IMG/VR virus record: IMGVR_UViG_3300042350_003801
Strand: one strand, 5' to 3'
DNA length: 64,000 bases
Origin: a virus
Taxonomy: Duplodnaviria > Caudoviricetes
Part shown: one piece after another, positions 879-56,184 of the stretch
Layout: every line of letters begins with the position of its first letter
How positions within the stretch are numbered: position 1 is the stretch's first letter
Made by a program: the position numbers and the translations under genes
The notes under the pieces: model-generated
What the model saw: the letters and a program-made list of their open reading frames with translations, nothing else
The model's database searches: none
What the model was told of the DNA's origin: nothing

Positions 879-1301
879 TCACTCTGGTATATTTAAATAA
901 TCTTCAGCCATATGTATTTTTACTTTTTGATTACTTTTCGGTTTGGATAATCTCAGTCCAAGCCATTTTTCACACTTGTTGGGGTTAACATAATAGCATT
1001 TATCCGTATCTGGACAATAAATGCACATTAAATCTAATTCATTTTTATCGTAATCTTTATGATGTGAGCCATTTCTGTCGGCCCAAGATGTTCCAAAACG
1101 TACATTAATTACGTTATTATTAGCCGCTCTATATTTAACTTGAACTCTTTTAAAAATGCCGTCTTTATACGCGACTAAATCAAAAGATTCGTGCTCTGTA
1201 TGCGGGGTAAGAATTAAATAACCCTTTTCATACAAATCAAGTTGGGCTTTTAACACACCAAGGTCGCCTTTATTTTTAGTATGGTGATACCTCATACTCA
1301 T
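879..1301 (-). CDS. free-standing PD-(D/E)XK homing endonuclease, I-Ssp6803I-like (PDDEXK_5)
   Basis: TKNKGDLGVLKAQLDL..GY, FDLVAYKDG..RVQVKY motifs; AAGGAG RBS. Confidence 0.8.
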   Translation of the reverse strand: MSMRYHHTKNKGDLGVLKAQLDLYEKGYLILTPHTEHESFDLVAYKDGIFKRVQVKYRAANNNVINVRFGTSWADRNGSHHKDYDKNELDLMCIYCPDTDKCYYVNPNKCEKWLGLRLSKPKSNQKVKIHMAEDYLNIPE

Positions 1302-1402
1302 ATTCTCCTTTATTAAGTTCGCATTTCTATTTATAAAAATGGGGAGGTTGAACCTCCCCGGAGCCTTAAAGGTGCGAACTTAATAAGGCATCTCTATTTA
1401 TA
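1302..1402 (-). promoter_or_regulatory. double late promoter with 14-bp complementary arms and an internal hairpin controlling the endonuclease
   Basis: TATAAATA at 1395-1402 and 1328-1335; inverted repeat 1310-1323/1373-1386; GGGGAGG/CCTCCCC hairpin 1341-1359. Confidence 0.7.
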
Positions 1403-1420
1403 GTAGAAGAATAATTTCAA

Positions 1421-1705
1421 CGAGAACGGCGTGACTCGAACACGCGACTTACTGCTTAGCTTACCACTACGGATTTCCCCGCCATTTCTGTTTGTGGTCT
1501 GGACCATCTCTTCATCTTATCTTACGACTTAGATGCTTCCCGTATGGCCTCTACACGTTCAGGATTTCTCCCGCTTCGCTCGGGATTGCCATAGTCTTAC
1601 GACTTTAGGGTTCCCCGAATTTGAGAAGTTACATTTATGAAGTTTCCCTCGTAAAGCTCCTATTTTCGAAGGCAGTTGTTCTAAATCCAACTGAACTACG
1701 TTCCC
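1421..1705 (-). tRNA. trnR: tRNA-Arg(UCU), intron-containing (exons 1669-1705 and 1421-1459)
   Basis: Joined exons give GGGAACG-TA-GTTC..GAAC-A-ACTGC-CTTCTAA-GCAGT-AAGTC-GCGTG-TTCGAGT-CACGC-CGTTCTC-G. Confidence 0.9.
1460..1668 (-). mobile_element. group I self-splicing intron, 209 nt, no ORF
   Basis: 5' splice after U, terminal G; P AAAUUCGGGGAA, Q GGCAAUCCCGAGC, R GUAGAGGCCAUACGG, S AAGAGAUGGUCC; P7 GGCCAU/AUGGUC; P1 CUU|C..GGAG with U-G pair; P10 UAG/CUA. Confidence 0.9.
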
Positions 1706-1837
1706 ATAATAAAACCCGAAATAACTCGGATTATGGTTTATTTAGTAAGAATCAAAAACACCCCAAATAACACAAAACGCTCCGGACGCTGAACCGGCAC
1801 AGTTAAGCACCTGAACACCTATTACAATAAGTCAGGC

Positions 1838-14145: not shown

Positions 14146-14303
14146 CAGACTTTGAGTTCAGAACGAACGAATTGAACTAGAGCATTATCAATCTTGTTAT
14201 CAGTAGAAGCAGCATAACGCTCAAGAAGAGCAACTACTAGGGCACGGGCTTCCCTGGAATCCCAGAACCACTTAACAACAACGCCAGCGAATTTGGTGAG
14301 CAT
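14145..14303 (-). CDS. small hypothetical protein (52 aa, ...STDNKIDNALVQFV...)
   Basis: RBS AAGGAG; stop overlaps the next ATG. Confidence 0.55.
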   Translation of the reverse strand: MLTKFAGVVVKWFWDSREARALVVALLERYAASTDNKIDNALVQFVRSELKV

Positions 14304-14334
14304 AATTATATCTCCTTAGTTAGGGTATAATTAT

Positions 14335-14727
14335 TTAGGAGTTTTGCACTCTCCTCGCTGCCCGTTGCGCACTTCTTGCTCGGGCTTTTTCAGCTTTTTC
14401 TCTTTTCTCTTTCTGTGTAGGATCTTGTCGTTGGGCAGCTAGAATTTCGGCGGCTTTAGCTAATTTTGCATTTTTGTCTTGTTCAGCGGTTTGAGATGCT
14501 TGTTGGGCTTCTCTCTGTCTTTTAATGTCTAGCTGAGCCGCCGAGGCAGTAGTTCCGGTTCCAGCAGGTAGATTTGAAAGGCGTTGGGTTCTATCTTTCT
14601 CTTCTTTACTTCTTCTCGTTGAAGAGACATTTATTGTTCCGTGTGCTCCCCGTAGAAACCGCCCAGAGCCTTTAATATCTCTTTGAGATGCGTGAGCTTC
14701 ACCAAAAAACTGTTCAAATGTTTTCAT
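14335..14727 (-). CDS. probable head-internal protein with capsid-targeting sequence
   Basis: N-terminus MKTFEQFFGEA. Confidence 0.55.
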   Translation of the reverse strand: MKTFEQFFGEAHASQRDIKGSGRFLRGAHGTINVSSTRRSKEEKDRTQRLSNLPAGTGTTASAAQLDIKRQREAQQASQTAEQDKNAKLAKAAEILAAQRQDPTQKEKREKAEKARARSAQRAARRVQNS

Positions 14728-29368: not shown

Positions 29369-30565
29369 CTATTGATTTTCTAGACGCTTCACAGCAGATG
29401 CTAAATGGTGAAAATCACCGCTCAGTCTTAATTCCGCTCCACGCCCGTAATCGGCGTACTCCGCCGATGAAATTTCTTTATCGGTTAGGCTGCGCCAACC
29501 TTCCTTTAAGATATTGATAGAGGCATTTAAGTCTCTATCATGTTTTGAGCCGCAAGACGGACAAGTCCATTCCCGAATGTTTAGAGGCATCTTGTCTTCC
29601 TTGTAACCACAAGAACTACAAGTCTTACTAGAGGGAAAGAAGCGGTTAATCTTAACCAAGACTTTTCCATACCAGTTGCATTTATACTCTAACATAGAAA
29701 CAAAAGTAGACCAGGCTGCATCAGAAATAGACTTCGCCAGTTTGCGGTTTTTCAGCATTCCAGAAACATTAAGGTCTTCAAGAACTATTAAATCAAATGT
29801 GTTCACTAAAGCGGTAGACACATTATGAAGAAAATAAATTCTTGAATTGGTAATGAATTCGTGTACTTTAGCAACTTTTATTCGTTGCCGGTTGTAACGA
29901 TTACTACCTTTAGTCTTACGACTTAAATGTTTCTGTGCTTTTTTGAGTTTCGCTTGGTTCTTGCGAAACCACTTGGGGTTGTTGATAACTTGACCATTTG
30001 AAAGAATGAACAAGTCTTTAATGCCCAAATCAATACCTACTACTTTACCCGTAGAGGGTATTGGATTGAGTTCTTGCTTAATCAAGATAGAGACAAAATA
30101 TTTTCCGGTTGGTGTTTTAGAAACAGTAATGCTCCTGAAGTCTGCTTCTTCGGGAATTTCGCGGTCAATAACAACTTTAACCCAACCAATTTTTTCAAGT
30201 CTAACTAAAGAGTTTTTTTGGTCAAGTTTAAACCTTTGATTATTGAGTCTAAAAGACTGCCTATTTGATTTCTTCTTGTATCTGGGTCTTCCGAGTTTAA
30301 CCTTTCGTTTCTTGTTGAAAAACTGTTTCTTAAATTCAATAAAGTCATCTCTTTTTTGTTGAAGGGTAGAAGCAGAAACCTCTTTAAGAAACTCAAATTC
30401 AGGAGTGTCTTTAAGCGTCTTCTCGGTAATAACTTCCTTGGAGTTGTTATTGAAGTTTTCAACAAGTTTATTCCAAACAAACCTGCAACAGCCGAAAGTC
30501 TTTGCTAGTAGAATTTCTTGCTCTTCAGACGGATAAATCCGAAACTTGTATGCTTTTAAGTGCAT
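29369..30565 (-). mobile_element. tnpB: TnpB RNA-guided endonuclease (IS200/IS605 family), solo
   Basis: [12 protein letters not shown], RuvC GIDLG / VLEDL / DRDLNASIN, CxxC-CxxC zinc finger. Confidence 0.93.
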
Positions 30566-30684
30566 CCGCTCTGTTTATTGGTTGGCAATACTATTTAGTA
30601 AAGTTTTATTTTATAAGGGGAGAATTGCTCCTCCCCACCTGAAAAGCGCCAACCAACCAGGCATCTTTATTTAGTGAAGTTTTA
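30566..30684 (-). promoter_or_regulatory. double late promoter with complementary arms and an internal hairpin upstream of tnpB
   Basis: ACTAAATA at 30668-30675 and 30592-30599; arms 30647-30657/30577-30587; GGGGAG/CTCCCC hairpin 30617-30636. Confidence 0.65.
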
Positions 30685-54306: not shown

Positions 54307-55461
54307 TCAGTTTTTGCGGAACATATCGGCCGCTCTGAGATATTGTGACATTGAATCTGAGACGGACTCAGGTGAATAGTCATAACCTTCAGATAGGGTT
54401 TCCGTTACCACATGCTGGGCTACTCTACGAATTGGGAAATAAGATTCCCTTAGAGTTTCCAACTTACCTCTATAAGTTTGCTCACCTTCAAACTCAACAC
54501 TTTCAGCAAGTGTGGCGAGCTTCTCTTTCTGAGTGGCCGCTAGACCTTCAGATACTTCATCAAGGATTCTATCTGCAACCGACTCGGAGAGTCTTTGGTT
54601 TAGGCGGATATTCTTCTCAATTTGCTCGTTGAGTTTTTCTTCCATTTCATCTAGTTTTTCTACCATGCCTTCCAGCACATCATACTTTTCTTCAGGCATT
54701 TGCACATAATGTTGTTCACAAAGTCCCTTAAGACCTTCCAGGAAGGACTCGGTAACCTTAACTTTAATACCAGTCTCAACTTGGAGACGGTTTTCTTCTA
54801 GCCATTCTTCGGCTACATACTCTAGATAAGCATCTACACGCTCTTCTAGTTCTTCTTTGATCGTTTCTACTTCTTCAAGAAGTGCCTGCTCGTATTGGAC
54901 TTCTAGAGCCTCTTTAAGTTGAGCAGCGCGAGTCTTAAGAGCGGCTTCAAAGATGGTGCGAGCTTTTTCTTGAAACTCTTCAGAAAGTTCTTCACCTTCG
55001 ATTAGAGCATTGACATCTTCATCAACATTGAACTCTTCTTCGTAGACTTCCTCTTCTTCTACTTCGTCTTCACCTTCTTCTAGTTCTTCTACCTCTTCGT
55101 CTTCAAGTTCCTCTTCGGATTCTTCATCTTCTAGAAGTTCTTCATCTTCGTCATCTAGTGATTCTTTTACTGCACCACTAGCAAGATGAGGAGTAGATTC
55201 AGCGGCTTTTGCGCCACGAGTAACTACATCGCTAACTTTAGAAATACGACCAGCTGGGTCTTTAAACTTTGCCGAATCGTCGTCGTTTTTATAGTTTTCT
55301 GGGGTGGGACCACCTAAATCTTCCCAACCCGCAGATTGCCCATCTGGAATACCAGTGGTTAGCTTTGGCATCGGTTCAGCTGGCTTTGCACCACTGTTTA
55401 CTGCAGTTCTTGACTGAGGATTCTTTGCGTCCATTTCTTGTAGATTCTTACCACGAGGCAT
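54307..55461 (-). CDS. 22: prohead core scaffold gp22
   Basis: Acidic; KARTIFEAA, YLEYVAEEW, L.ESVEF. Confidence 0.92.
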   Translation of the reverse strand: MPRGKNLQEMDAKNPQSRTAVNSGAKPAEPMPKLTTGIPDGQSAGWEDLGGPTPENYKNDDDSAKFKDPAGRISKVSDVVTRGAKAAESTPHLASGAVKESLDDEDEELLEDEESEEELEDEEVEELEEGEDEVEEEEVYEEEFNVDEDVNALIEGEELSEEFQEKARTIFEAALKTRAAQLKEALEVQYEQALLEEVETIKEELEERVDAYLEYVAEEWLEENRLQVETGIKVKVTESFLEGLKGLCEQHYVQMPEEKYDVLEGMVEKLDEMEEKLNEQIEKNIRLNQRLSESVADRILDEVSEGLAATQKEKLATLAESVEFEGEQTYRGKLETLRESYFPIRRVAQHVVTETLSEGYDYSPESVSDSMSQYLRAADMFRKN

Positions 55462-55536
55462 TTTAATCTCTCCTTTTGAAACCTTGTAATTTGTTTATTC
55501 TATACTTATTTAGTAAAGTATTGCTTTTCAGCGCAC

Positions 55537-56184
55537 TCAAATACTATTTAGAAAACTATTAAATAGTTCTAGTTTTTTCTCTTCAAGTTGACGAGATTCT
55601 ACTAGTTTGTTAATATTTTTCTTAGTATCTTCAATAAGCCATTCATTTTTGGTCACATCGTAATACCATTCTCTACCTTCCATAATACCTTCTACAAATG
55701 CAGAAGTACAAGAAGGATCGTGAACAATATCGGCAACGGTTGAGAACATAAGGTCATCGCCAACAATATTCACCCCTTCATTAGTTGCTCTTAAAGAACC
55801 AACGGCTCTTGAAGAGACTCCAAAAACGACACCTTCCTCGTGGAGGTTTTTTACAATATTGCCCATTGGGGTATTTGTAATAGATGCTCTACCATAGAAG
55901 CAGTTACCCTTTCTAGTGATAGATTCAATTATGTGTGACACTCTTTCATAGTTAATTGCAGGCGAGGCCGGATGACCAAGTTCTCCTACAGCCCTCTTCT
56001 TATTAACAAAGTTTTCAACATAGAAGTTAATGGCATTATTAAGAGTTTGAATGGGATAAACTCGTCCATTTCTGTTTTTTGTTTCGGCTTCACAAAATAC
56101 CCCTTCAATGTATAGTTTCTTCTTACCGTTTACACTTTCGGTGAGCATTTTCACATTTTGAGCTTCTTCCGTAAAAAGTTTCAT
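55537..56184 (-). CDS. 21: prohead protease gp21
   Basis: LYIEGVF..NRNGRVYP, GELGHP, GVSSRA.GS, D.V.DPS. Confidence 0.95.
   Translation of the reverse strand: MKLFTEEAQNVKMLTESVNGKKKLYIEGVFCEAETKNRNGRVYPIQTLNNAINFYVENFVNKKRAVGELGHPASPAINYERVSHIIESITRKGNCFYGRASITNTPMGNIVKNLHEEGVVFGVSSRAVGSLRATNEGVNIVGDDLMFSTVADIVHDPSCTSAFVEGIMEGREWYYDVTKNEWLIEDTKKNINKLVESRQLEEKKLELFNSFLNSI

Follow-up and report, generated by a model that had tools for sequence, protein, structure and literature searches.

The leader of the tnpB gene in the DNA analysed here, a stretch of 64,000 nucleotides referred to as the window, raises the question why a TnpB nuclease of a phage is preceded by two promoter-like boxes interleaved with two complementary arms, and why the same arrangement stands, 29 kb away, in front of an unrelated gene for a PD-(D/E)XK endonuclease. 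The original prediction had described for both sites the order of upstream promoter, scaffold, arm, GC-rich hairpin, second promoter, complementary leader and ATG, and both copies indeed possess, one after the other, an upstream [C/A]TAAATA box (P1), a stem-loop (SL1), a terminator-type hairpin (SL2), a downstream box (P2), a leader complementary to SL1 and the start codon (Table 1). The arrangement is probably a transferable module of ~110 nt that controls the expression of selfish nucleases in T4-like lake phages; it would combine control in cis with control in trans and, as judged from its sequence, would most likely limit the translation of the nuclease.

Table 1. Features of the tnpB and PD-(D/E)XK cassettes and of their adjoining genes, in window coordinates
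Feature	Position	Strand	Remark
gp44 (clamp loader) 3' end, ACTGAAATTATGTATGAATTGGAGTT	30765-30740	-	remnant repeated 3' of tnpB, 29360-29340
tnpB cassette, whole	30563-30683	-	
P1, tnpB cassette, late-type box CTAAATA	30674-30668	-	predicted start G30662, 6th nt past the box
GAUGCC, tnpB cassette	30665-30660	-	
SL1, tnpB cassette, GCCUGGUUGGUUGGCGCUUUUCAGGU	30662-30637	-	begins five bases past the P1 box
SL2, tnpB cassette, GC-rich terminator-type hairpin GGGGAGGA-GCAA-UUCUCCCC	30636-30617	-	predicted fold
U/A-rich tail after SL2, tnpB cassette	30616-30599	-	
P2, tnpB cassette, late-type box CTAAATA	30598-30592	-	predicted start G30586; ATG 32 nt downstream
tnpB leader, GCCAACCAAUAAACAGAGCGG	30586-30566	-	starts five bases past P2; ATG at 30565
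tnpB, 398 aa	30565-29369	-	Pfam HTH_OrfB_IS605, OrfB_IS605, Cas12f1-like_TNB
Right-end motif TTACTAT of the tnpB element	29362-29356	-	conserved among relatives; flanks beyond are locus-specific
PD-(D/E)XK cassette, whole	1299-1410	-	
P1, PD-(D/E)XK cassette, TATAAATA	1402-1395	-	predicted start G1389
SL1, PD-(D/E)XK cassette, stem GCCUUA/UAAGGC, loop arm UUAAGUUCGCA	1389-1363	-	predicted fold
SL2, PD-(D/E)XK cassette, GGGGAGGU-UCA-ACCUCCCC, then AUUUU(U)	1359-1341	-	predicted fold
P2, PD-(D/E)XK cassette, TATAAATA	1335-1328	-	predicted start G1322; ATG 32 nt downstream
Leader of the PD-(D/E)XK gene	1322-1302	-	ATG at 1301
PD-(D/E)XK endonuclease gene, 140 aa	1301-879	-	PF11645, E 3e-36

The window is the DNA of a T4-like myovirus and encodes the clamp loader gp44, the clamp gp45, a gp46-like ATPase and gp62. 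Its gp44 is ~52% identical to cyanomyovirus gp44, its DNA occurs in lake-water metagenomes, and a near DNA match was not found among deposited phages. The sequence CTAAATA is strongly biased in orientation, with 23 occurrences on the coding strand versus 1 on the other strand of the window, and [C/A]TAAATA precedes many start codons by 28-34 nt, including those of the head maturation protease and the tail tube; no late-type box is present before gp44, gp45 and gp46. Both boxes of the cassettes match the T4 late-promoter class (TATAAATA) and are thereby putative late promoters, while no sigma-70-like site was found to coincide with P1 or P2. Transcription from T4 late promoters starts at the sixth nucleotide past the box, and the starts of P1 and P2 were set in the same way; the first base of the predicted P2 transcripts is also that of the complementary arm. 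Elsewhere in the window, two late-type boxes 38 nt apart (55512-55556, minus strand) flank a short hairpin, AGTATTT.../...AATACT, upstream of a 384-aa ORF (54307-55461) beside the head protease gene, without the nuclease scaffold. An ordinary late leader, CTAAATA...ACCCUAACUAAGGAG...AUG (14301-14347, minus strand), weakly matches both ends of the covariance model of the cassette (E 0.56), and the ends of the module resemble the normal late leaders of this phage.

In the tnpB cassette, situated in a region where all genes lie on the minus strand, SL1 is predicted to fold into a 6-bp stem, GCCUGG/UCAGGU, with the anti-leader arm GUUGGUUGGCG in its loop. The leader of tnpB reads GCCAACCAAU ... 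CAGAGC (30586-30568), of which GCCAACCAAU pairs with the loop of SL1 and CAGAGC (30573-30568), adjoining the tnpB start codon, with the 5' strand of that stem-loop (GC-CUG), the cognate duplex of arm and leader amounting to -22.3 kcal/mol. In the PD-(D/E)XK cassette at least 14 nt of the leader GCGAACUUAAUAA-AGG are paired with SL1, reaching the GGAG ribosome site, and the cognate duplex of -20.3 kcal/mol compares with -6.0 kcal/mol one way and -11.2 kcal/mol the other when the two cassettes are crossed. That the arms differ between the two copies, each being complementary to its own leader, had been predicted and holds true, as the cognate duplexes are strong and arm and leader covary family-wide. 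The 17-bp direct repeat proposed for the tnpB cassette does surround its two promoters, but its identity is 16/17 (AAAACTT[C/T]ACTAAATA). The U tract of this copy, UUAUAAAAU, is weak, and a simple terminator scan made no call there.

Within the window, the pattern GATGCC-N(10-40)-GGGGAG is matched twice versus a chance expectation of 0.02, and in the predicted folds of both regions, with z-scores of -2.4 and -4.3, the arms are paired and the hairpin is nested between them. A third cassette was not found in the window, neither by a scan for exact arms nor by the covariance model with its filters off, so that there are two only. The scaffold had been taken to be constant; it is reused with variable arms, but GAUGCCU is not invariant, the family being described by (A/G)(A/U)U(G/A)CCU. 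A leader peptide translated from the AUG of GAUGCC was considered as well and ruled out because the family does not preserve this AUG (AAUACC, AGUGCC and others occur).

Further copies were collected by three pattern scans and a covariance model. The scan of viral contigs required P1 and GATGCC, the scan of metagenome contigs used the same kind of pattern, and a third scan, again of viral contigs, asked for the hairpin, P2 and the beginning of the leader but not for P1. The covariance model (R1), built from 14 copies, yielded 80 matches, 78 of them distinct, from 67 sources, and the family comprises at least 29 arm classes in viral and metagenome contigs; no Rfam family matches the module. Whole records can carry several copies, with four in a complete 250-kb genome, five in a 127-kb record and seven in a 19-kb contig. 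The cargo downstream of the module consists of GIY-YIG/NUMOD3, HNH, HNH_3/NUMOD4, PD-(D/E)XK and TnpB proteins and of a few unknowns. While P2 is found in 78/78 cassettes, P1 is found in 77/78 and in every arm-bearing match of the P1-free scan, and it keeps a fixed 5-nt spacing from the predicted start and SL1, which puts the predicted start at the foot of the SL1 stem. SL2 is followed by 3-6 U within 9 nt, except in two copies with 2 and 7 U; as this U tract is short in some copies, including that of tnpB, termination may be partial.

Two helices of the module covary. The long-range helix, in which the 5' strand and the loop of SL1 pair with the leader, is paired in 93.6% of the cells of the model alignment compared with 71.5% in shuffles and 41-47% with the partner slid, pair counts that are inflated since the covariance alignment was fitted to this very helix. 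Compensatory changes occur in 16/16 long-range pairs and reach the AGAG/GGAG ribosome site. Free of the alignment bias are the energies calculated with RNAduplex, which amount to a mean of -21.1 +/- 1.6 kcal/mol for cognate P1 RNA and leader and to -9.1 +/- 3.4 kcal/mol between the 29 arm classes. Among 35 distinct combinations of arm and leader, leader positions 1-7 are without any non-canonical pair and positions 3-10 show three or four pair types each. Cassettes residing in the same genome are orthogonal to each other, with -18 to -25 kcal/mol for cognate versus -3 to -16 kcal/mol for non-cognate combinations. G-U pairs are frequent, which speaks for selection of the structure in the RNA of this strand and not in the DNA.

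The second covarying helix is the stem of SL1. In the predicted P1 RNA, SL1, SL2 and the U tract fold in 58/58 cassettes, the stem of SL1 comprising 5-8 bp from nucleotide 1 or 2 and the arm lying in a loop of 13-17 nt. This stem is paired in 84.9% of the cells versus 19-57% when slid, in an alignment that was not fitted to SL1, and double changes are found in 7/7 stem pairs. As SL1 and the long-range helix both covary, the 5' strand of SL1 has two conserved and mutually exclusive partners, either the 3' strand of SL1 or the ribosome-site region of the leader. The helix of SL2 covaries likewise and is paired in 94.5% of the cells of the model alignment. The covariance-model alignment was used as MAFFT with RNAalifold on 44 copies gave 4 pairs only, with the arms out of register. 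Arm positions are only modestly more variable in entropy than the unpaired linker, and diversifying selection for specificity is therefore not claimed. With 78 distinct cassettes, four or more nuclease families and covariation at each of the 16 arm/leader pairs, the suggestion of a reusable phage module is nevertheless borne out, and the covariance-model search proposed along with it has recovered many further cassettes; since arm/leader covariation holds across these new copies, the objection that there might be no further examples fails.

Arms and nuclease genes occur in different combinations. Behind a given arm class at a given locus stand unrelated ORFs, such as HNH-type and GIY-like ones in the case of the arm GCGACCC, and a single arm class is also found at different loci. 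It seems that the nuclease ORF is swapped while the leader stays the same, with the putative junction near the conserved AGAGNAGAA..AUG. The contigs on which these combinations were observed are L133, L146, L173, L174 and L208 as well as L128, L140, L171 and L150. A dense homing-endonuclease array is present in L122 and its record G005 (19 kb), where seven cassettes each have their own arm and nuclease ORF; in one of the seven cassettes in 19 kb (L335) P1 is lost and the arm has decayed. A solo unit of P1, SL1 and terminator, without P2 and without a nuclease gene, is located on contig L044 (1076-1137, plus strand) directly after gene 32, facing a convergent gene, and the same arm is accompanied at the same locus of L132 by P2 and a nuclease gene with NUMOD3 motifs. 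Among the solo sRNA halves sought, L044 is the only one found.

The PD-(D/E)XK endonuclease of the window also shows a weak match to PDB chain 2OST. Its cassette begins a few bases past a tRNA-Arg(UCG)-like gene (1404-1706, minus strand) whose anticodon loop is apparently interrupted by a group I intron (RF00028 in Rfam, 1478-1678, 66 bits). The tRNA sequence reads GGGAACGTAGTTCAGTTGG...CTTCGAA in its 5' half and GCAGT...GTTCGAGTCACGCCGTTCTCG in its 3' half; ARAGORN made no call for this split gene. The endonuclease could be a free-standing nuclease that partners the ORF-less intron.

The tnpB product aligns with ISDra2 TnpB (8EXA) over 354 residues (E 9e-73), and in this alignment the RuvC D/E/D residues and the zinc finger are intact and HDRDLNA is conserved. 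A tnpA gene was not found in the window. The gene lies in an insertion flanked by the repeated 3' end of gp44 (Table 1), and in the nearest relative (L209, gp44 83% identical) gp44 overlaps the next gene directly and thus presents the empty site, which identifies the 1.4 kb from ~55 nt upstream of P1 to the right end of tnpB as the insertion. The joint of the empty site was not found in four lake-metagenome runs, in which all relatives carry tnpB, and no convincing duplicated target flank was detected in five other tnpB loci. Directly after TTACTAT, contig L290 and two lake runs possess 16 nt, TACTGAAATTATGTAT, that are a copy of the gp44 3' end, and the window and L296 are without exactly these 16 nt. 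Such a sequence could be an omega-RNA guide matching the uninterrupted site, or its deletion could avoid self-targeting; a search of Rfam gave no match for an omega RNA.

In viral contigs, the closest relatives of this TnpB (80-96% identity) are all equipped with the module, displaying seven different compensated arms. On contig L293 (1923-3697, plus strand) an 83%-identical TnpB is overlapped by a serine-recombinase TnpA (PF00239) in an IS607-type unit, and the same TnpA C-terminal motif, as read from the sequence only, is located upstream of the 53% identical TnpB of L298 and L299. These loci likely represent the source type of the phage tnpB, which we infer to have been taken from an IS607-type unit; ahead of tnpB, the module holds the place that tnpA has in the IS607-type relatives. 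The domestication of TnpB that had been suggested is not what these findings argue for. With its catalytic residues and zinc finger intact, its right end conserved, its ~1.4-kb insertion absent from the closest relative and an 83%-identical TnpB standing behind a serine-recombinase TnpA, the protein looks like a selfish nuclease which has taken over the expression module of homing endonucleases, and would fit a still-selfish RNA-guided nuclease whose guide matches the uninterrupted site.

How the module might operate can be outlined from its parts. The sequences establish its anatomy, the covariation of both helices, the reuse with different genes, the orthogonality of the arms and the insertion; promoter activity, termination and an effect on translation are predictions. 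SL1 starts where transcription from P1 is predicted to begin and carries an arm of 10-13 nt in its loop. Between the predicted start at P2 and the weak ribosome site (AGAG/GGAG), the leader is complementary over its first 10-19 nt to the loop and the 5' strand of SL1. RNA started at P2 alone is without the anti-leader and is therefore proposed to be the only translatable form. In cis, RNAs with both halves, produced by read-through from upstream genes or from P1, would fold the leader into a helix of ~16 bp that masks the ribosome site, and the nested terminator would impose an extra transcriptional block. In trans, P1 and SL2 may release an RNA of ~45-65 nt consisting of SL1 and SL2, whose loop would pair with the P2 mRNA at its free 5' end, the duplex then extending into the ribosome site, such that translation of the nuclease would be damped in step with promoter activity. 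As P1 and P2 belong to the same class, repressor and target would be made together, the benefit of which is an argument and not an observation. It is highly likely that pairing with the leader controls translation at all. That the RNA made from P1 acts in trans is put forward tentatively, at slightly less than an even balance. The conserved P1 with its fixed spacing, the conserved 3' strand of SL1 and the terminator exceed what control in cis explains, and the upstream half, as a predicted RNA of 45-65 nt, resembles classical antisense regulators. A more far-reaching version, which we regard as possible but somewhat more doubtful still, is that P1 makes a programmable antisense RNA acting in trans, so that ~30 or more orthogonal pairs of sRNA and leader would exist, endonucleases and TnpB would cap their own dose, and a solo sRNA half such as that of L044 could silence the nuclease of a co-infecting phage.

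The module might alternatively be an insulator that works exclusively in cis, its terminator and leader-masking helix shielding the nuclease gene from upstream early and middle transcription as in T4 I-TevI. The cis principle has been experimentally established in T4 and Aeh1 (PMC2988022), the full-length folds bring the arms together, and the U tracts are weak in some copies. P1 would then give rise to no RNA of consequence and would be retained, for instance, for late read-through or as the direct-repeat partner of P2, although insulation needs neither a P1 that is kept in 77/78 cassettes at 5-nt spacing nor the 3' strand of SL1, which covaries despite competing with the cis helix; we consider this explanation rather unlikely, though far from negligible. 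Considerably less probable is a cassette for recombination at the DNA level, a kind of PeSL-like 'landing pad' for the swapping of nuclease ORFs with only incidental RNA folds. The same arm class does precede unrelated ORFs and recur at different loci, and T4-type PeSLs have been proposed to mediate such shuffling (PMC2839356, PMC4122927). However, two helices are maintained by compensatory changes which include G-U pairs, and pairing extends to the ribosome site, which indicates selection on RNA. A conserved module can give rise to shuffling as a side effect, and PeSLs carry early sigma-70-type promoters instead of late boxes.

Proteins have been considered as the readers of the cassette in two further explanations. 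The constant scaffold could be an operator bound by a RegA-like repressor or by the nuclease itself, with the arms as a structural frame, an arrangement for which I-TevI, autorepressing at an operator that overlaps its late promoter (PMC2988022), provides a precedent and for which conserved unpaired stretches are available in the scaffold. Yet the cargo proteins are unrelated, which does not suit one common autoregulator; the module is not accompanied by any protein partner, nothing points to RegA or another protein as a binder of the scaffold, and it is precisely the leader-pairing parts that vary. We give an operator a small probability, lower even than that of the recombination cassette. 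The transposon origin of tnpB would be compatible with hairpins that form the left end of an IS200/IS605/IS607-type element recognised by TnpA. The distribution of the module contradicts this reading, as it also precedes GIY-YIG, HNH and PD-(D/E)XK genes, which are not of IS type, covaries with the leader of each gene and is replaced by tnpA in the IS607-type relative L293; we consider it very improbable indeed.

If the combined control in cis and trans is correct, the module shows how large lytic phages come to tolerate selfish nucleases. As a leader it is compact and transferable, with its specificity residing in an arm of 10-13 nt that changes together with its target. Should the small RNA be real, the family would constitute a natural and ready-made set of orthogonal riboregulators and a case of antisense control encoded on the same strand, and the RNA could serve as a weapon or a shield between co-infecting phages; a genome that contains the sRNA half only and silences the nuclease of a co-infector would, if true, possess an RNA-based immunity to homing. 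By carrying the module, TnpB shares the ecological and regulatory niche of the classical homing endonucleases in T4-like phages, in support of the idea that, outside transposons, TnpB is a homing nuclease guided by RNA.

Among known regulators, RNA-OUT of IS10 is a stem-loop RNA, made from the opposite strand of the same DNA, the loop of which pairs with the 5' end of the transposase mRNA and covers the ribosome site, with dose-dependent inhibition. As in the RNA-OUT/RNA-IN pair, a small stem-loop RNA, here a predicted one, would direct its loop against the 5' end of a mobile-element mRNA; unlike in IS10, the complementarity stems from a same-strand inverted repeat that is provided with tandem promoters, and action in cis is also possible. 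With IS607/IS605-family TnpB (ISDra2, PDB 8EXA/8H1J) the phage protein has in common the RuvC D/E/D residues, the zinc finger and a right end conserved among relatives, whereas tnpA is missing here and a leader module of homing-endonuclease type stands in its place. PeSL cassettes (PMC2839356, PMC4122927) are likewise short and conserved composites of promoter and terminator, repeated in variable regions of T4-like genomes and connected with modular gene swapping, but a PeSL joins a stem-loop to an early sigma-70-type promoter and is without a leader-matched arm, in contrast to the two late-type boxes and the covarying anti-leader of the module.

The closest resemblance in layout is to the endonuclease genes of T4 and Aeh1, namely I-TevI, I-TevII, I-TevIII, segB and mobE, where a hairpin hides the ribosome site on long transcripts and a late promoter inside the hairpin yields a translatable RNA (PMC2988022). 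In the searchable literature, neither the tandem-promoter, sRNA-like architecture nor the reuse of one scaffold with many arms nor its use by TnpB was found. Shared with the T4-type hairpins are a late promoter of the TATAAATA type between complementary arms, a 3' arm over the ribosome site and a selfish nuclease as cargo, and Aeh1 mobE has an upstream terminator as well. Different from them, a second late-type promoter is positioned here exactly before the 5' arm, a conserved stem-loop presents this arm in its loop, the terminator is nested between the arms, and one scaffold is reused with at least 29 arm variants and four nuclease families including TnpB. The principle of translational control is already known for T4-type homing endonucleases, and the module extends this T4 control.
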